NCBI GenBank assembly: GCA_963754085.1
Contig: CAVWFA010000012.1
Location: forward strand, 38,638-102,637
Direction: 5' to 3'
DNA length: 64,000 nucleotides
From: Candidatus Aminicenantes bacterium
GTDB taxonomy: Bacteria; Acidobacteriota; Aminicenantia; Aminicenantales; Saccharicenantaceae
The notes under the pieces were generated by a model. That model saw nothing but the letters and a program-made list of their open reading frames with translations, had not been told where the DNA came from and searched no databases. Below are positions 46,445 to 55,641 of the stretch, one piece after another. A program made the translations under genes and the position numbers. The stretch's first letter is position 1. Each line of letters begins with the position of its first letter.

Positions 46445-48839
46445 TCAGTCGAACTTGAACTGCTTGTCGCGGAACAGGCGCAGGCAGGCGTCGACGACCT
46501 CACGGTCGTAGAGGATGCCCCGCTTCAGCGAGATCTCTTCGAGGGCGGCCCCGACGCCCAGGGCCGGGCGGTAGGGACGGTGGGAGGACATGGCTTCGAC
46601 GACGTCCGCGACGCACAGGATCCGGGCCTCGAGGAGGATGTCCTTGCCGGCCAGGCCCTGAGGGTAGCCGGAGCCGTTGACGAGCTCGTGGTGTTCGTGG
46701 ACGATCCTGGCGATGGGCCAGGGGAAGTCGATCTTGCTCAGGATGGTAAAGCCGGCCTGGGAGTGCATCTTGATCAGGGCGTACTCGAGGTCCGTCAGCT
46801 TGGTCGGCTTGCTCAGGATCTCGGCGGGCACATAGAGCTTGCCGATGTCGTGGATGACCCCGGCGATCTCGATGGCCTCCACGCTTTCCTCGGGGAGGCC
46901 CATCTCGCAGGCGATGGCCCGGGCCAGGCGGGTGGTGCGCTCCTGGTGGCCGGCCGTGTAGGGGTCCCGCATCTCGATGGCCGATGACAGCGAATCGATC
47001 GAGGCCTTCAGGGTCGACCGCAGCTTGGTCAGGCCTTCCCGGAGGTCCGTCTCGGCCCGCTTGCGCTCGGTGATGTTCCGGCAAAGATAGACGATGCTGT
47101 AGGGGGCCCCCCCCGCGTCGCGGAGGATGGCGCCGTCGATCTCGAACGGGATCCGGCCCCCGGACTTGAAGACCAGGCCGATCTCCTGGGGCCCGATCTT
47201 CTTGTCGAACATGAGCCGCGAGGCGAAGACGGCCTTCTCCCGGTCCTCGGGAGCGACGAAATCGAAGACGTTCAGGCCGGACAGGCCCTCCGGGCCGGCG
47301 TCCCCGTACATCCGGTTGGCGACTTCGTTGGCGAACAGGACGTTCCCGGACAGGTCTGTCCGGATGATGAGGTCCGGGATCGAGGCGACGAGCCGGCGGT
47401 AGAGCTCCTCGCTGTCGCGCAGCGCCGTCTCCGTCCGGAAGCGCTCCGTGACGTCCTCGACGAGAGAGGCCACGCCGATGACCTTGCCCGACCCGTCGAC
47501 GAGCGAGGTGTTGTACCACTCGCAGAAGATGGCCCGGCCGTCCTTGGTGACGTTCTCATTGGTGCTCCGCTCGCCGCCCCGGTTGGCCATGAGGTCGGAC
47601 CAGGTGCGTTCCACCTGGCCCTTGAACTTCTCGGGGACGATGAACTCGGCGTGCCGCCCGACGGCCTCCGCCGCCGAGTGAGCCGAAGATGCGCTCGGCG
47701 GCGTGGTTCCATTGGAGGATGCAGAAGCTGGTGTCCCACTCGATGACCGCCAGGGGCGTCTTCTGGATGTGGAGGGAGAGCCTCTGCTCGCTCCGGCGGA
47801 GGGCTTCTTCGGCCCCGACGCGCTCGATCGAGCGGGCGACTTGGGAGGAGACGAACTCGAGCATGCGCTGTTCGACCGGGCCGTAGGCGCTCGGGTTGCC
47901 GTAGTGCTGCACGACCATGGCCCCCTTCGTCTTGCCGTCGACGATGAGCGGGACGCCGAGCCAGACCGTGGACGGGGCTCCGACGATCTCGACCTCGCCG
48001 CGGCTGCGCAGGATCCGGTCCGTCATCTCGTCGCAGAGGAGGGACCGTCCCGTCCGGATGACGTACTCCGTCAGCCCCTTGCCGGGCTTGATCGGCGGCG
48101 GGGGAGGATCGATCTCGTCGACGAAATAGGGGAAACGGATGAGGTCCTTCTCCTTGTCGTAGAGGGCGATGTAGAAGTTCGAGGCCGGCATGACGGTGCC
48201 GATGATGCCGTGGACCGACCGGAACAGGCTGTCCAGCCCGGACGACAGATCGGCGGCCTGGGCGATCTTGTAGACGGCGTTCTGGAGCAGCTCCCCCTGC
48301 TTCCGGTGATGGATGTCCTGCATCATGCCGATCATGCGCCGGAGGTCTTTGTCGTCCTCGATGAGGAAGAAGCCGCGGTCGTGGAGCCAGCGGTAGCTTC
48401 CGTTCTTGTGCCGGAACCGGTAGTCGACGTCGTAGGTCTGGCGGTCCCGTTCCGCGGCCTCGAGGAGCCGGACGGCCTCCTCCCTGTCGTCGGGATGGAT
48501 GCGCGCCGTCCACTCGTCGATGCCGCCCATCTCGTGGGGCTCGTAGCCGAGGACCTCTTCGACGCGGCCGCTCCACTTGATCTCGCCCGTCGGCAGGTCG
48601 TAATCGTAGACGACCTGGCCCGAGGCGGCGATGATGAGCTCGTACTTCTTGCGCTCGTTGATGTAGGGCGCCTTGTAGGTCCGGGCCTCGGACTTGACGA
48701 TCGGAACGGCCGGCTCGATCGCGCCGTCCCAGGCGTCGGCGGAGGGGGGGGCCGCATCGGCCAGGATCGTATAGTTCTTGCCGAAGATCCGCATCTTATC
48801 CTCGGCGGGAGTTTCGCTCAGGGGGCTCCCCCCGTCCAT
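46445..48839 (-). CDS. Multidomain signalling protein with PAS, GAF, PAS and HD-GYP regions. A 1-bp frameshift lies near 47675-47685.
   Basis: The HD-GYP motifs (HHE...GSGYP) lie in the C-terminal ORF and the PAS/GAF regions in the N-terminal ORF. The two ORFs join across ERIFG|YSAAEAVGRHAEFIVPEKFKGQ. Confidence 0.6.
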
Positions 48840-48904: not shown

Positions 48905-51091
48905 TCAAATGCGGAGCAGGTAGGAGACCTTAAGGGTGGCGGAATATCCGCTCAGCCGGCCCAGAAGATCGTTCCGCTCGTTCTTCTTGAGCGCCAGCTG
49001 GATGATGTTCCCGGCCCCGAAATAGTAGCCGACGAGGAAATCGAGGCTGTACTGCTTTTCGATGGTCTCGCCGAACAGGCGCGCATTGAGGAACAGGCTC
49101 CGGGTCAGCTGGTAGTGGAGCGCGGTCTGGTAGGTGAGGCCGTCGAATAATGCGCCCTCCGTGCCGTCGACCGTCTGGCGGATCCATCCGCCCTCGAGGG
49201 ACCATTCCAGGAAAGACTTCGGCCGCAGGACGATCTGGCCCTCGACGTTCAGCTCGGAACCCGGGGCGACGGTGGACCACTCCTCCAGATCGACATAGAC
49301 GCCGCGCTTCTCCCAGCCGCCTTCGATGCCGATCTCCTTGAGGAAGCCGCCGCGCTCCCAGCTGATGTCGACGTCCGTGCCGTAGGTCTGGATGTAGTCG
49401 GGTGTCCAGACGAGCGCGCCCTCGGGATCGAGGATCTGGTACTTGCTCCGGCCGAGGCTGAAGCTGATGTGGCCGTCCATCCGGTTGAACAGTTCGGCCA
49501 TGGCGAACACCTCCAACCCCTGGCCCGTGTCGGTGCCGCGGGTGTCCTGGCGGGCTTCGCCGCCGAGGTCGAAGCTCAGGCGCTTGAACACGCCCTTGTT
49601 GTACCGCCAGGCGTAGCCGGCCATGAGGTCGAACGATTGGACGTCGATCTGGTCGACGTAGCCCGACTCGATGTTGACGTTCTCCTCGATCCTCTGGAAT
49701 CCCGACATGATCTGCAGGCCCGCGTCCGGCTCGCGCTGGAAGTTGAGCTGGTAGATGCCGTTATGACCGCCTTCGGCGTTCTCGTTGAACGTGTACGCGC
49801 CCATGCCCCGGATATAGTAGATATCGCTGAAATTGAAGTTGAAGTCGACGGCGGCGTTCTGGTTCCGGACGTCCCCGTCGCGGATGCCGGCGTAATAGAA
49901 ACCGATCTGCGAGTTCTTGAGGATGTCCTTCTGGACGCGGAAGACGCCGAAATACGAGTCGCGGGGGTCTTCGCCGGGCTCGACGCCCACCTTGTTGATG
50001 GCGCCGAGGACACCGAAGCCCCAGCCGCCGGTCTTTCCGGTGACCTTGGCCGCGAATCTCGGATTGCGGATGCGCCGGGAGTAGAACAGGCTGACACCTC
50101 CGCCGTGGTAATCTTCTTCGCCCGTCGACAGGTTGAAATAGCGGGCCCCCTCGGTGAAGAACGGCCGGTTCTCTTGGAGGTAATTCTCGTAGGGGGAAAG
50201 CTGGAAAATGAAGGGATCCGACTCGACTTCGCTGAAGTCCGGGCTGGCCGTGACGTCGAGATAGAGGTTGGGCTGGATGCCCCACTTGGCGTCCAGGCCG
50301 CCGGCGGCTTTGCTGTCCTTGTTCGTGGCGCCCGCCTCGTCCTCCCACTGCGAGGCCCGCACGCCCGCGTAGGGGAAGAACTCGAGGTTGTAGCCCGGGC
50401 GGAGCCCGGCCAGGCCGCGCAGCTCGCCGCTCTGCTGGAGCTCGGGCAGGTCGCGGTCGACGTCCGTCCAGTAGTCCGTCTCGTTGAGCCGGTGGATGTA
50501 GCGCTCGAAGTTGATGCCCCAGACCTCGAGCTTTTTCGCCGAGAAGCGGAGCGACTTGAAGGGGATGGCCATCTCGACGCTCCAGCCGTCGGAGCGCATG
50601 ACCGCTTCGGACTTCCAGATCGTCTCGACGGAGTTCTTCTGGACGCCGCGCGGATTGACCGTGAAGGAGATGCTCGTCCGCTTGTCGTTGTAGGCGTCGA
50701 GGATGAGCTTGATCGAATCGTTGTTCTCGAACTCGTTGCGCGGGGTCAGCTCGGCCCAGATCTTGCCGGGCTGGGCGTCCTTCATCAGGAAGGCGAAATA
50801 GAGATTGTCCCTGTCGTAGGCGGCCCAGATGAAGGTCTCTTCTGAGGCCGGCACGCCGTTGATGGGATCGTGCTGGTAGAAACCGGAAACCGGCTCGACG
50901 GCCTTCCAGCAGGCGTCGTCGATGAGGCCGTCGATCTTCGGCGGCGTCGCCGCGACCGGATTCACGCCGAGGCGCTTGACCGGCCCCTGCGCGGCGAGCG
51001 ACAGGGCGAGCAGGGGAAGGAGGGCGGCGGCGGTCCGCCAAGGGGAGGGGCGATGTCGGCGCTTCGGCATCCGGGACTCTCCAGTAGGCAT
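48905..51091 (-). CDS. DUF5916/CBM9-like secreted beta-barrel protein.
   Basis: A 728-aa protein with a signal peptide and a carbohydrate-binding-family-9-like N-terminus (KIDGLIDDACW). Confidence 0.5.
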   Translation of the reverse strand: MPTGESRMPKRRHRPSPWRTAAALLPLLALSLAAQGPVKRLGVNPVAATPPKIDGLIDDACWKAVEPVSGFYQHDPINGVPASEETFIWAAYDRDNLYFAFLMKDAQPGKIWAELTPRNEFENNDSIKLILDAYNDKRTSISFTVNPRGVQKNSVETIWKSEAVMRSDGWSVEMAIPFKSLRFSAKKLEVWGINFERYIHRLNETDYWTDVDRDLPELQQSGELRGLAGLRPGYNLEFFPYAGVRASQWEDEAGATNKDSKAAGGLDAKWGIQPNLYLDVTASPDFSEVESDPFIFQLSPYENYLQENRPFFTEGARYFNLSTGEEDYHGGGVSLFYSRRIRNPRFAAKVTGKTGGWGFGVLGAINKVGVEPGEDPRDSYFGVFRVQKDILKNSQIGFYYAGIRDGDVRNQNAAVDFNFNFSDIYYIRGMGAYTFNENAEGGHNGIYQLNFQREPDAGLQIMSGFQRIEENVNIESGYVDQIDVQSFDLMAGYAWRYNKGVFKRLSFDLGGEARQDTRGTDTGQGLEVFAMAELFNRMDGHISFSLGRSKYQILDPEGALVWTPDYIQTYGTDVDISWERGGFLKEIGIEGGWEKRGVYVDLEEWSTVAPGSELNVEGQIVLRPKSFLEWSLEGGWIRQTVDGTEGALFDGLTYQTALHYQLTRSLFLNARLFGETIEKQYSLDFLVGYYFGAGNIIQLALKKNERNDLLGRLSGYSATLKVSYLLRI

Positions 51092-51224: not shown

Positions 51225-52262
51225 TCACCACAGAGAGGACGGGTGTGTCGCCGGCGCGGCCTGACCGTTCGGGTGGCAGGCGTAGCAGGCCTGCGAATTG
51301 TACGCGTATCCCGTGACGTCGTCGTGCCTGGAGTTCGTACTCGACTGTTCGTGACAGCCGAGGCAATTGAAGACGCGGTAGTCGCTCGTCGTGTGACACT
51401 CGGAACAGGCGACGCCGGAGTGCCGGCCGGACGTGATCGGGAAGGGGTGGTCGAAGTCCGCGCCCGACCAGCCGCTCGCGGAGGTCCCGTGGCACTCCTC
51501 GCAGTTGAGCGGGAAGCCCGCGGCCCGGTGGTCGGGATCGGTCGTGCCGTTGTAATCGTCGAGGTGGCAGGACGCGCACTCCGTCGAGGTGCCCTGGTAG
51601 ACGCCGTTCTTGTGGCATTCCACGCACGAGGCCGAGGCGTGTTGTCCTTGGAGCGTGAAGCCCGTGTGGTTGAAGGACGCGCTCTCCCAGGCCCGCTGAT
51701 CATGGCAGGACGGGCAGCTCGTCGGGAAGCCGGCCTGGAGGTGGTTCGGATCGTCCGCCCCCCGGTAATCGGATTCGTGGCAGGCGTAGCAGTCCGTCGG
51801 CTGGGGGGTGAAGCCGCCGGTGCCGTGGCAGGCCTCGCAGTCAAGCGTCCGGTGGGTCCCCTCGAGGGCATAGCCCACGTCCGTTTCGTGGCTCCACAGG
51901 GCGGGGTCGACCTTTTTCCAGGACTGGGGCGTGTGGCAGTCTGAGCAGCGCATCCCCAGGCGCAGCGAGTAGCGGTCGTCCTGTCGGCGCTGCCAGTGAC
52001 AGGCCTCGCAGTCGGTCGGCGTGCCTTCGAAGACCAGGTTGAGATGGCATTCCCGGCATGACAGCGTCCGGTGTTTCCCGGTGAGCGGGAAGCTGGTCCG
52101 GTCGTGGGACTCGACCGTCCAGTCCTGTCCCGTGCGGGGGGGGGTGGGAGGGGCCGCCTTTTCCTGTCCCGGGCTCGATCGAGCGGCGAGGATCAGGAGG
52201 AGAGGGATGATGAACGCCCCGGCCAGGGCGATCGCCGGCGTGGATTTCATTCGAAGGATCAT
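51225..52262 (-). CDS. Dodecaheme c-type cytochrome with 12 CxxCH motifs.
   Basis: The CxxCH motifs were counted by eye from the translation. A signal peptide is present. Confidence 0.8.
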   Translation of the reverse strand: MILRMKSTPAIALAGAFIIPLLLILAARSSPGQEKAAPPTPPRTGQDWTVESHDRTSFPLTGKHRTLSCRECHLNLVFEGTPTDCEACHWQRRQDDRYSLRLGMRCSDCHTPQSWKKVDPALWSHETDVGYALEGTHRTLDCEACHGTGGFTPQPTDCYACHESDYRGADDPNHLQAGFPTSCPSCHDQRAWESASFNHTGFTLQGQHASASCVECHKNGVYQGTSTECASCHLDDYNGTTDPDHRAAGFPLNCEECHGTSASGWSGADFDHPFPITSGRHSGVACSECHTTSDYRVFNCLGCHEQSSTNSRHDDVTGYAYNSQACYACHPNGQAAPATHPSSLW

Positions 52263-52269
52263 GGCGTCC

Positions 52270-53571
52270 TCATCGGCTCCTGTAGATCAATCGGACGAAC
52301 AGGAAGTGCTCGTCGTTGCCGGACTGGAGGAACCCCCCGTATTCGACCTGGGCCGAGAGCCCGCGGCTGATCCGGACGAGGGTCCCGAGGGTGACGTTCC
52401 GGTGATCGTCCAGGGCGATCGGCACGGGCTCCCCCGAAGCCTGGTCGAAGCGGATCCCCTTGAAGGTGTTGGAGAAGCTGGCGTTCAGGGAGAACCGTCC
52501 GAAATCCTTGGTCAGAGAGGCGTAATAGGAATCGTTCTCGGACAGGTCGCCCCGATTGAGAGCGTAGTTCGCGACGAAGGAGAAGCCCTGGCCGAAGAGA
52601 TCCGAGGCGGAGGCCCCGAAGCGCCAGGTGTGGTTGACGTAGCCGAGGTCTTTCTGCTCGCTTTCCTGGCGGGCGACCGACAGGCGCAGGGTGCGCACGG
52701 GCTTGACGCTGAGCCGGACGCCGTAATAGCTCGAGTAATAGAAGCGCTCGACGTCCTGGTTGAAGATCGTCGGGTCCTGGGACGCTTCCAGGAGGTACTG
52801 GTGGAAATCGAGCCCCTTGCCCGAGCTGTAGCTCGCCGTCACGTCGGCCATGCGACCGAGGTCCAGTCGGACGTTCCCGAACAGCCGCGACAGGCGGTTC
52901 TCGCCGGCGACGTGGTCGCCCAGCTCGTATTCGGCGTCGCCGTAGACGACGAGCACTTTCTGGACGGGGAGGAAGACGTTCGCATAGGCGAACTGCCTCT
53001 CGACGCTGCCGCCATACCGGAGCTGGCTGAAGGTCAGGCCGGCCGTCCGGCCCTGCGTGCCGAGCCAGCGGACGAAAGCGCCGGCCTTGAGATAGTTCGT
53101 TTCGAGCCGGGCGATATACGGCGTCGACTGGAGGCCGCCGAAAGCGCCGACCAGGAAGTCGCGGCCGAGCTTGAAACCGGCGACCCCTCCGAGGAGAGAG
53201 CCGATCCCCGCGGTGTCGTAGAGATTCATCTGGCCGAGCGACAGATAGAACCGCGAGCCGGGCCTATCGTAGGTCAGGCGGGCGCTGTAGAGGATGAGCT
53301 GGTTGGTCAGGTCCTCCCGGATGCCGAGCCGGTCCCGGGCGTCGATGCTCAGGGTCCAGCCCTGTCCGGCCGGACGGATGAGATCGAACTTGAACCTGGC
53401 CGAGACCTGGTTGAAGACGACGCCGTCGGCGTAGCGCGAGCCGCTCCAGTCGAAGTAGATCGTGCCTCTCTGATAGAAGCCGGGCCCCGAGGACTGCGAG
53501 GCGAGGGGAAGACCGGCGAGGACGAGCCCCGCGGCCACGAACAGCAACAGCGGACCCGTCGAGCGGCGCAC
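52270..53571 (-). CDS. Outer-membrane beta-barrel (porin-like) protein sitting between two multiheme cytochromes.
   Basis: A signal peptide is followed by alternating amphipathic beta-strands, and the C-terminal residue is aromatic (…IYRSR is near the end). Confidence 0.6.
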   Translation of the reverse strand: MRRSTGPLLLFVAAGLVLAGLPLASQSSGPGFYQRGTIYFDWSGSRYADGVVFNQVSARFKFDLIRPAGQGWTLSIDARDRLGIREDLTNQLILYSARLTYDRPGSRFYLSLGQMNLYDTAGIGSLLGGVAGFKLGRDFLVGAFGGLQSTPYIARLETNYLKAGAFVRWLGTQGRTAGLTFSQLRYGGSVERQFAYANVFLPVQKVLVVYGDAEYELGDHVAGENRLSRLFGNVRLDLGRMADVTASYSSGKGLDFHQYLLEASQDPTIFNQDVERFYYSSYYGVRLSVKPVRTLRLSVARQESEQKDLGYVNHTWRFGASASDLFGQGFSFVANYALNRGDLSENDSYYASLTKDFGRFSLNASFSNTFKGIRFDQASGEPVPIALDDHRNVTLGTLVRISRGLSAQVEYGGFLQSGNDEHFLFVRLIYRSR

Positions 53572-53574
53572 GGC

Positions 53575-54156
53575 TCAGTCCTCCTCCGGCATCCGTCCGA
53601 CGCCCCAATGGCCTTGTTGATGACAAGCCAGGCATTCGTCCTGTCGGCCCGGATGCGGCGCATTATGGCAGCCCCGGCAGCCCGGGACCTTGAAAAGGTA
53701 GGACCGGCCCTGGCTTCTCGCCAGGGTCCTGGCCGGCGTGTGGCACGTGTCACAGGCCTTGACCTTCAAGTGGGCGCCCTGGAGGTCGGCGCCGGTCTCG
53801 GCATGATCGAAATCGGCGGGGTCCAGCGGCACGAGATCGGCCTGGCGGCCCTGATGTTCGGCGTGGCAGACGGCGCAGTCGTCGGCCTTGTCCCGGTGAT
53901 AGCCCTTGTTGGCCGCGATCCGGGTGCCGATCTCGGTGTGGCAGGCCAGGCACTTGGCCGGGGCGATTTTGCCGGGAGCGACGTGACAGGCCGCGCAATC
54001 GGCTTCGCCGGGCTTGACCGCGTGGGCCGCGCTCAGAGGGCCGGGGATCTCCTGGCCGGAACCCGGCCGGCCGGCGGCCGGGGTCAAGACCAGGGCCAGC
54101 CAGAGGCCTAGGCCGAGGAGCGGGAGAAGACGTCGTATCGCTTCCATTATTCCCAC
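53575..54156 (-). CDS. Hexaheme c-type cytochrome with 6 CxxCH motifs.
   Basis: A 193-aa protein with a signal peptide. It is the first gene of the probable cytochrome-porin-cytochrome operon. Confidence 0.8.
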   Translation of the reverse strand: MGIMEAIRRLLPLLGLGLWLALVLTPAAGRPGSGQEIPGPLSAAHAVKPGEADCAACHVAPGKIAPAKCLACHTEIGTRIAANKGYHRDKADDCAVCHAEHQGRQADLVPLDPADFDHAETGADLQGAHLKVKACDTCHTPARTLARSQGRSYLFKVPGCRGCHNAPHPGRQDECLACHQQGHWGVGRMPEED

Positions 54157-54263
54157 TGTTCCTATGTATCCTATATATATGATATGAAGTTGTCAAACGG
54201 CTCCCGGGACGTCTGCCCCGGCCGGGAGGGGAATTTCCTCCCGGGGTTCACCTTTAGGGGTGA

Positions 54264-54296
54264 TTGACGGTGGTCACGGCTAATCCGATGATAAAC
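54264..54296 (+). promoter_or_regulatory. Putative promoter for the 54322 gene (-35 TTGACG; -10 region GATGATAAAC). A dyad CCGGGAGG-N7-CCTCCCGG lies just upstream.
   Basis: The motifs are read directly from the divergent intergenic region. Confidence 0.3.
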
Positions 54297-54321
54297 CTGA
54301 ATTTACCCAAGGAGTAGGCCT

Positions 54322-55641
54322 ATGGCCAAGATACTGCTGGTCGATTTCAGCCCGGCCGACCGGGATCGTCTTATTGCCGAAAAGTACGATGTCGATGCGC
54401 GCTCGACCGGCTGGACCACCGGCCTCGACGAGCCCCTGGATCTCTCGGGCGAACATGACGTCGTCTTTTACCAGGTCGGCGGCGAGGCCGCGGCCGGCCG
54501 CCCTGATCTTCACGCCGATGCGCACGAGGCGCTCCTGGAGCGCGCGCGCGAAGGCGCCCGGATCGTCTGCTTCATCGGCGGCGGGGAGACGTTCCAGCTG
54601 ACGAACATCGTCGGGCCCCTGGACGGGCTTCAGATCAAGGATAGCGCCCGGGCCGAGGCCGTCGTCTTCAGCCCGCGGGCCCTGTTCCACGTCCCTTTCG
54701 AGAGGTTCCGGCCGTACATCGCCAGCGCCTTCCGCCTCCTGCCCGAAACGTTCGGCGACGGGATCTGGGAGACGGAATCGTCCGCGAACGGCAAGTTCGA
54801 GTTCCTGGCCAAGACGACCGACGGCGCGCCCGTGGCCATGGTCGTCCGGAAAGGGAAGGGCGAGCTCCTGCTCCTGCCCTCGTTCGGGCCCAAGACGATC
54901 GAGGTCGTCGATTACATCCTCAAGGATAAGCTGCCGCTCACGCCCGAGCCTCCCGGCGAGGCGGGCGCCGGCTGGCTCGAAGGCGAAGACTACGTCTTCC
55001 CCGAGCTCCGGGCCCTGGTGGCCAAGCGCGACGAGGAGAAAAAGAAGCTCGAGGAGGCCTTGGCCGACTACGACCGCCAGATCAAGGACCTCAAGGCCGG
55101 CGGCCAGGAGGAGTTCCACCGCCTGCTCAGCGGCGAAGGAGCGGTCCTCAAGAACGCCGTCGTCCACGCCCTCCGCTACCTCGGCTGGGGCCGCGTCGTC
55201 GACGTCGACCAGTACTGGAAGAAGACCATCCGGAACAAGGAGGAGGACGCCTGGGTCATCGATCCCCCCGATATGCCCGTGGAGGCCGGCCTGCGCAAGG
55301 GCGAGCTGGTCATCGTCCTCGCCCGGGGCGGCAAGAACTGGGCCACGGACGACGAGTGCGCCCTGCTTCAGAAGTTCAAGGGCCGGCGGATGCAGGAGTT
55401 CGACAACACCCGGATGAAAGCGGTCCTCGTCGGCAACTACTTCTCGGCGGCCGAGGCCAAAAGCCGGCCCAATCCGTTCTCGGCCGCGCAGATCGAGGAG
55501 ACCCAGAAGGACGGCAACGGCCTGGTCACGACCTACGAGCTGTTCCGGGCCATCAAGGCCGAGAAGGAGGGCCGCGTTTCCAAGGACGCCATCCGCGAGC
55601 AGATCAGGCGCAAGACCGGACTGATCACTTTCGATATTTGA
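54322..55641 (+). CDS. Hypothetical 439-aa cytoplasmic protein of unknown family.
   Basis: A clean ORF with a good RBS (AAGGAG). No family is recognised from the sequence. Confidence 0.5.
   Translation: MAKILLVDFSPADRDRLIAEKYDVDARSTGWTTGLDEPLDLSGEHDVVFYQVGGEAAAGRPDLHADAHEALLERAREGARIVCFIGGGETFQLTNIVGPLDGLQIKDSARAEAVVFSPRALFHVPFERFRPYIASAFRLLPETFGDGIWETESSANGKFEFLAKTTDGAPVAMVVRKGKGELLLLPSFGPKTIEVVDYILKDKLPLTPEPPGEAGAGWLEGEDYVFPELRALVAKRDEEKKKLEEALADYDRQIKDLKAGGQEEFHRLLSGEGAVLKNAVVHALRYLGWGRVVDVDQYWKKTIRNKEEDAWVIDPPDMPVEAGLRKGELVIVLARGGKNWATDDECALLQKFKGRRMQEFDNTRMKAVLVGNYFSAAEAKSRPNPFSAAQIEETQKDGNGLVTTYELFRAIKAEKEGRVSKDAIREQIRRKTGLITFDI

Follow-up and report, generated by a model that had tools for sequence, protein, structure and literature searches.

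The minus strand of the 64-kb stretch of DNA analyzed here (referred to as the window) carries three tightly packed open reading frames (ORFs), which we call cytA, the barrel gene, and cytC in the order in which they are read. They encode a hexaheme cytochrome, an outer-membrane β-barrel, and a dodecaheme cytochrome, respectively, and are separated by gaps of only 3 bp and 7 bp:

53575..54156, minus strand: cytA, hexaheme c-type cytochrome (193 aa as listed, 6 CxxCH motifs, 12 Cys)
52270..53571, minus strand: outer-membrane β-barrel (433 aa, 0 Cys)
51225..52262, minus strand: cytC, dodecaheme class-III (c3/c7-like) cytochrome (345 aa, 12 CxxCH motifs, 24 Cys, 12 further His)

The first-pass annotation of this region had described three co-directional genes with a 6-CxxCH, a barrel-like, and a 12-CxxCH product in an Acidobacteriota-like host, and these ORFs exist as described. 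Since their GC3 values range from 0.80-0.90 in a sequence of 66% GC, we regard all three as genuine coding frames, and their arrangement marks them as co-transcribable. A six-frame scan of the whole window detected 18 CxxCH motifs, all of them in cytA and cytC, and not a single one in any other ORF of at least 60 aa. Because the motifs are confined to these two genes, the heme cluster is far beyond chance. The ORF finder placed the start of cytA at a GTG (54156), but the true start is probably the ATG at 54147 (MEAIRRLL..., 190 aa), since orthologs begin with M(A/E)... at the equivalent position; this ATG is preceded by GGGAAT. As to the host, the named homologs belong to metagenome-assembled genomes (MAGs) of Candidatus Aminicenantes or Acidobacteriota, the closest relative being a Lake Pavin sediment MAG with 96% identity (L014; related contigs are numbered L0xx and related proteins P0xxx). 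This fits the proposed affiliation, given that GTDB ranks the Candidatus Aminicenantes lineage as a class of Acidobacteriota. The window also codes for an outer-membrane phospholipase A1 and a TonB-type barrel, and the host is therefore a diderm. The remaining genes encode transporters, glycoside hydrolases, peptidases, an H+-pyrophosphatase, and cell-division proteins, a saccharolytic/proteolytic context.

The N-terminus of CytA is a Sec-type signal or anchor without a lipobox, and its orthologs do not contain a lipobox either. The protein contains seven His beyond its six CxxCH motifs and matches the Pfam model Cytochrome_C7 with 27.6 bits, which is over the cut-off. CytC starts with a Sec-type signal peptide followed by a Pro-rich linker, again without a lipobox, and its first Cys is that of the first heme motif, as in 38 of 39 CytC homologs. 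Because exactly 12 His are located outside the motifs, all 12 hemes can be bis-His coordinated. The motifs form four triads with a period of ∼72 residues, which correspond to a head, two middle, and a tail triheme module and share the recurring signature F-x-H ... G-x-H-x4-CxxCH ... G-T-x-x-x-CxxCH-x2-DY ... DPNH-x2-AGFP-x2-CxxCH. Accordingly, CytC scored with the Pfam class III models Cytochrome_C7 (58.6 bits, two stretches), Cytochrom_CIII (51.9), and Cytochrom_c3_2 (42.6). The NCBIfam models MtrC/OmcA, HmcA, and nanowire_3heme all remained far under their cut-offs for CytC (OmcA/MtrC, 24.9 bits versus a cut-off of 209; TIGR04257 for nanowire_3heme, 16.7 bits versus 40). When the PDB was searched by sequence with each of the three proteins, with their profiles, and with a profile of the triheme module, only marginal matches to nine-heme cytochrome c were obtained (best E value 2e-3), and no chain of MtrA, MtrB, MtrC, or GSU1996.

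For the barrel, a search of Pfam and NCBIfam with the single sequence gave no match; neither database holds a model for this family and therefore nothing is annotated at its position. No match was obtained among PDB sequences either, be it with the single sequence or the profile, and no Mtr chain appeared at E values up to 10. The AlphaFold2 model (32 homologs) is all-β, with a mean pLDDT of 80.9, a pTM of 0.68, and an N-terminal signal helix (signal peptide approximately residues 1-24). It contains 22-24 DSSP strand segments, ∼22 once merged. When compared to the PDB with Foldseek, this model matched outer-membrane barrels exclusively (probability 1.00), including OprD/Occ, the PapC/FimD ushers, AlgE, and chitoporin. 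On the basis of the model the β-barrel fold class is certain, and the objection that the middle protein might not be a barrel, which the first-pass annotation had named as fatal to its proposal, is thereby answered. The matches reach only low template-modelling (TM) scores (0.35-0.48), and the top 50 do not include MtrB, so the barrel has no specific structural relative. Strands hold 274 of the 409 mature residues (67%), and the loops do not exceed 11 aa, with the sole exception of residues 255-275 (21 aa), a loop that is highly conserved in sequence and modeled with low confidence. Neither a plug nor a periplasmic or N-terminal domain is seen in the model. By standard barrel geometry, 22 strands should result in a Cα diameter of ∼40 Å, and the pore would therefore need filling. 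The C-termini of more distant family members read ...YRF or ...RF, a typical outer-membrane-protein signature. With the family profile, just 253 related clusters were recovered from 1.84 billion representative proteins, and a search seeded with an alignment of distant barrels gave only 6 proteins.

On balance, we favor the view that this operon encodes an outer-membrane porin-cytochrome conduit. The features described so far also bear on another explanation, which we consider unlikely: the two cytochromes could be purely periplasmic carriers or reductases and the barrel a dedicated diffusion channel for the soluble or colloidal compound on which they act (for instance chelated Fe(III), polysulfide/S0, or humic analogues), with no protein spanning the membrane. 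Both cytochromes indeed have ordinary Sec-type N-termini without a lipobox, the best structural matches of the barrel (OprD/Occ, AlgE, chitoporin) are substrate channels, and pcc clusters are not confined to reducers of solid Fe or Mn (PMC4245776). However, the TM-scores to these channels are low, the long constriction loops of specific porins are absent from the barrel, and a 22-strand pore without a plug would make the outer membrane very leaky. Moreover, no catalytic-type heme motif and no additional domain is seen in CytA or CytC, and gene gaps of 3-7 bp or overlapping starts, maintained over a large evolutionary distance as described below, fit a stoichiometric complex better.

We scanned related loci with one genome per species and obtained 58 barrel loci at 40-96% identity, nearly all of them from Candidatus Aminicenantes MAGs. 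A multiheme cytochrome homologous to CytC is encoded downstream of the barrel in 50 of 50 loci with enough flank, that is, at least 1.5 kb of downstream sequence. Upstream, a multiheme cytochrome is present in 46 of 53 loci and is a hexaheme in 38 of these. The module is a real and well-conserved feature, and the genetic coupling between the barrel family and the cytochrome family is almost invariable. In one locus, L025, an apparent frameshift or read-through in a long-read MAG assembly disrupts the module genes, which we treated as an artefact. Three pairs of loci (L027/L041, L040/L055, and L042/L046) appear to represent two paralogous modules each, because the contigs of a pair share one MAG.

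The downstream cytochromes carry 9, 12, 15, 18, 21, 24, or 36 hemes, a multiple of three in 45 of 48 complete ORFs. Their head and tail modules are conserved, and it is the number of middle triheme modules that varies. The longest forms, with 36 hemes in ∼914 aa, are encoded by L058 (8697-11441) and L052. Near-identical tandem triheme repeats in the L058 protein indicate a recent module amplification. In the subgroup of these two loci, the barrel bears an N-terminal CarboxypepD_reg-like domain, and a gene for a transmembrane-anchored FeS/FAD pyridine-nucleotide oxidoreductase is located between barrel and cytochrome. This growth from 9 to 36 hemes by triheme amplification, including the repeats of L058, would also suit a quite improbable alternative, namely that the barrel serves for export or anchoring and delivers the modular cytochrome to the surface as an extracellular wire of tunable length instead of being permanently filled by it. 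GSU1996 arranges 12 hemes over 12 nm (Pokkuluri 2011, as cited in PMC11492766), and if extended in the same way, proteins of 9-36 hemes would far exceed the length needed for crossing the outer membrane. The shortest forms (9-12 hemes), however, suit a sheath that spans the membrane.

The association between barrel and cytochrome extends beyond these loci. Seven distant relatives of the barrel were examined (L063-L069; 430-475 aa, E values of 1e-15 to 1e-27 with the family profile), and in all seven a c7/c3-like multiheme gene is located directly upstream, abutting or often overlapping the barrel start. Adjacency thus persists at 16-40% barrel identity, where all other synteny is gone. In L065 and L066, the upstream multiheme gene ends in the same tail module as cytC. 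In L063, it encodes a 15-heme protein that fuses CytA-type (N-terminal) and CytC-type modules: residues 30-174 align with the whole mature CytA (38% identity, E value 1e-35), and the remainder aligns with CytC through its C-terminus (43% identity, E value 5e-70). Because the two are fused in L063, we argue that CytA and CytC may act as one continuous heme chain. Four distant clusters are accompanied by genes for FAD/NAD(P)/FeS oxidoreductases, with FAD_binding_6/NAD_binding_1 genes at L064 1-448, L068 803-1660, and L069 1-800, and Fer2 in L064 and L069. As a separate observation, L064 contains an ORF of 1837 aa with 59 CxxCH motifs upstream of the barrel.

These counts also decide on the simplest objection, that an ordinary porin gene happens to be located between two unrelated periplasmic cytochrome genes. 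The missing family annotation of the barrel, and a wider superfamily that includes members with unrelated N-terminal domains, would be compatible with such a coincidence. We nevertheless rate it as highly improbable: the downstream link in 50/50 loci is joined by the association in 7/7 distant relatives, gene starts overlap, and the flanks are otherwise unrelated. Based on these synteny counts, chance adjacency is effectively excluded.

In the porin-cytochrome conduit that we favor, the barrel would sheathe a rod-like CytC, by analogy to MtrB and MtrA, and so insulate a row of closely spaced hemes that crosses the outer membrane. At its periplasmic end, CytC would be docked end-to-end by CytA as an entry or exit adaptor, and the 18 hemes of the two proteins would make up a single path across this membrane. 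Electrons would be passed from the quinol pool via an inner-membrane dehydrogenase encoded elsewhere to the conduit, and leave it toward acceptors outside the cell, for instance Fe(III)/Mn(IV) minerals, humics, or partner cells. In one related contig (L001, identical to L013; 12368-13758), the operon goes on with genes for a pentaheme cytochrome with a C-terminal transmembrane helix and a Ni_hydr_CYTB cytochrome b, which could plausibly be the quinol dehydrogenase that feeds the conduit.

The outward direction of this flow is suggested only by ecology: Aminicenantia are an anaerobic sediment lineage, and some of their MAGs have been flagged by FeGenie as potential iron reducers (PMC12740246). 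The same hardware might also work inward and supply the periplasm with electrons drawn from extracellular sources (Fe(II), minerals, cathodes, or partner cells), as proposed for PioAB/MtoAB, but we think this rather improbable. The minimal conserved unit, a barrel plus one non-lipoprotein multiheme cytochrome and no surface cytochrome, is an architecture typical of Fe(II)-oxidizing mtr-type clusters (Shi et al., PMC4245776), and two reports propose Aminicenantes as iron oxidizers on the basis of cyc2 hits (PMC7005843; 10.1101/2020.09.22.307553). On the other hand, the window contains neither carbon-fixation genes nor a high-potential acceptor module, and its gene context is saccharolytic and proteolytic. 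Furthermore, all-bis-His c3/c7-type hemes are usually low-potential, which also counts against inward flow. Finally, MtrAB alone can also work outward (PMC4245776). An iron-redox capacity of Aminicenantia is in itself no new claim, since FeGenie-based studies have already flagged it (PMC12740246, PMC7005843, 10.1101/2020.09.22.307553). As far as their accessible text goes, these three reports do not describe a dedicated barrel family, a length-variable modular cytochrome, or a fusion.

We next compare the module with known systems. Porin-cytochrome (Pcc) clusters consist of a porin-like protein of 18-22 strands and an adjacent cytochrome with 5-14 hemes, an outer-membrane cytochrome being optional, and their porins share as little as 8% identity (PMC4245776). 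Here, a ∼22-strand AlphaFold2 barrel with Foldseek matches to outer-membrane barrels is encoded next to cytochromes with 6 (CytA) and 12 hemes (CytC), both predicted from their sequences to be exported. The OmcB-like outer-membrane lipoprotein cytochrome that is present in most clusters, although not in all, has no counterpart, since neither CytA nor CytC contains a Cys before its first heme motif. By the definition of Shi et al., the predicted features of the module qualify it as a Pcc cluster, minus the lipoprotein cytochrome.

One example is the OmbB-OmaB-OmcB (or Ext) type of Geobacter sulfurreducens, which resembles the module in combining a small porin-like barrel with co-encoded multiheme cytochromes, including a dodecaheme, and has the same proposed role, electron transfer across the outer membrane. 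OmcB is a lipoprotein, whereas the dodecaheme cytochrome described here lacks a lipobox; in addition, there is no OrfR-type regulator, and no relation was detected with Pfam or NCBIfam. The Geobacter genes are ordered ombB-omaB-omcB and encode an 8-heme periplasmic and a 12-heme outer-membrane cytochrome (PMC4245776), in contrast to the order cytochrome-barrel-cytochrome and the periplasmic partner with 6 instead of 8 hemes in our module. The first-pass annotation had proposed a porin-cytochrome module that mirrors OmaB/OmbB/OmcB. Its first half is borne out by the barrel fold and by an adjacency that persists among the distant relatives; the Geobacter system, however, is not mirrored, given the different gene order, 6 + 12 instead of 8 + 12 hemes, and the missing lipobox.

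Two-gene Pcc clusters of Anaeromyxobacter and Kuenenia come closer. Their "periplasmic" cytochromes of 338-344 aa with 12-14 hemes resemble CytC (345 aa, 12 hemes), a likeness drawn from their description (PMC4245776), whereas our module has an extra upstream hexaheme gene. With MtrAB(C) of Shewanella and MtoAB/PioAB, the module would share the design of a barrel that sheathes a rod-like multiheme cytochrome, although here the sheathing is a prediction. The minimal two-component form of MtrAB/PioAB has no surface cytochrome, and neither does the module. By analogy, it therefore seems closer to the MtrAB/PioAB design and to the two-gene Pcc clusters than to OmbB-OmaB-OmcB. The solved MtrB-type structure comprises 26 strands in a protein of ∼700 aa. 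For MtrB/PioB, 28 trans-membrane motifs were predicted (PMC4245776); the present barrel is smaller (433 aa, ∼22 strands) and falls outside this family. The same is true for the cytochromes: MtrA, PioA, and MtoA are decahemes, compared to 6 and 12 hemes here, no MtrA-type NCBIfam model matched, and no solved MtrA was found for CytA or CytC. We therefore rejected a membership in the MtrAB/PioAB families because of barrel size, heme counts, and the lack of any match to a model or PDB chain.

CytC can also be compared to GSU1996, the c7-polymer "nanowire" of Geobacter, likewise a dodecaheme protein of ∼340 aa with four concatenated triheme c7-like modules (c7-polymer design, PMC11492766). CytC consists of tandem triheme c7-type domains as well, and its family expands by module addition like the GSU1996-type family. 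But searches with CytC gave no solved chain with an E value below 0.002 and no match to GSU1996. GSU1996 has one His-Met heme per domain, whereas all CytC hemes can be bis-His, and it is a periplasmic protein that is not linked to a barrel. A fused porin-cytochrome of the Cyc2 type does not apply, since the barrel contains neither a Cys nor a heme motif.

Several observations weigh against a conduit. At the sequence level, no relation of CytA, the barrel, or CytC to an experimentally proven component of a conduit was detectable, and the host organism is uncultured. As judged from the N-termini, there is no surface lipoprotein cytochrome that could hand electrons to solids, and neither a gene for an inner-membrane quinol dehydrogenase nor any other gene of respiration was found in the 64-kb window; the link to the pentaheme cytochrome and cytochrome b is seen on one contig only (L001 = L013). 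The AlphaFold2 model of CytC alone (39 homologs) is poor (pLDDT 48, pTM 0.24) and thus unusable, so the shape of CytC is deduced from its modular sequence only. In addition, some barrel relatives carry N-terminal domains of other kinds, CarboxypepD_reg or SPOR according to Pfam scans of family members, or AMIN-like extensions that were recognized by eye only (Pfam found none in P0160). Because these domains and extensions (in P0125, P0128, P0160, P0171, P0178, and P0190-P0195) are not cytochromes, the barrel superfamily is not exclusively cytochrome-linked. We also considered whether the N-terminal extensions of relatives with 517-587 aa contain cytochromes, which was rejected. The same applies to P0130 (1007 aa), a candidate cytochrome-barrel fusion: because it contains a signal peptide in its interior and a stretch that looks out of frame, we regard it as a read-through or frameshift artefact.

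The kind of system proposed here is already known; it is the barrel family that, according to our searches, is unannotated in Pfam and NCBIfam. Tentatively, and with clearly more doubt than for the conduit itself, the barrel may be the founder of a family of outer-membrane sheaths that has so far gone unrecognized and for which homology to MtrB/PioB is not detectable. This family would serve exclusively a single lineage of modular class-III heme wires, tuned between 9 and 36 hemes by triheme amplification, the longest of which could bridge periplasm and outer membrane as one polypeptide. If true, Aminicenantia would be widespread but overlooked mineral-respiring or electroactive bacteria that manage without a surface lipoprotein cytochrome. 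They are among the most abundant uncultured bacteria of anoxic sediments and aquifers and have mostly been modeled as fermenters. With a conserved electron conduit in the outer membrane, they would take part directly in Fe/Mn, humic, or interspecies electron cycling. The graded series of heme wires (9-36 hemes) together with one small barrel would suit the study of how porin-cytochrome complexes are constructed, and a hidden Markov model of the barrel family would improve the annotation of iron-cycle genes.

The surroundings of the module contain the following features:

54168..54196, minus strand: sigma-70-like promoter candidate for the operon (TTGACA-17-TAGGAT, 10/12 consensus matches; a consensus match only)
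54228..54269, minus strand: conserved intergenic element, CGTCAATCACC-CCTAAA-GGTGAAC-CCCGGGAGGAAATTCCCC, with the inverted repeat TCACC-N6-GGTGA
54322-55641, plus strand: divergent gene for a 439-aa protein, conserved beside the module (17 locus entries, 58-97% identity)
48905-51091, minus strand: gene for a 728-aa protein, CBM9-like plus DUF5916, 133 bp downstream of cytC
46445-48839, minus strand: two sensor-type ORFs, PAS-GAF (427 aa) and PAS-HD-GYP (389 aa), with a 59-nt overlap in different frames

Two sigma-70-like sites are found in the region, compared to 0.3 expected, and the arrangement TTGACA...TAGGATATATAG is kept in close-clade loci. The conserved element (54228-54269) is located inside the 165-bp intergenic region 54157-54321 and recurs at this position in 15 locus entries, which represent 14 distinct contigs. 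Among these is L002/L018 (one contig), a locus without cytA. The element overlaps with the -35-like hexamer of a promoter-like site on the plus strand (54264-54292) for the divergent 439-aa gene. It is a candidate for an operator shared with this gene. No RNA family of Rfam was detected in the region, and the 439-aa protein has no match in Pfam, NCBIfam, or PADLOC.

The 439-aa gene, an SSF transporter, a GH94 gene, and the DUF5916 gene are neighbors of the module in the close clade only (at least 66% identity), and their conservation therefore reflects relatedness rather than function. The DUF5916 gene, for instance, keeps its place downstream of the module in 15 loci, which belong almost exclusively to the close clade, but not in distant ones; the 728-aa product may be a separate outer-membrane protein. 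The RNA between cytC and this gene folds strongly, at -51 kcal/mol, a raw value without shuffle control. Since their conservation ends at the close clade, we rejected the DUF5916 gene, the 439-aa gene, and the PAS/HD-GYP regulators as parts of the module. The PAS-GAF and PAS-HD-GYP ORFs, which are kept in L014 and L015 only, may be two genes or one frameshifted gene.

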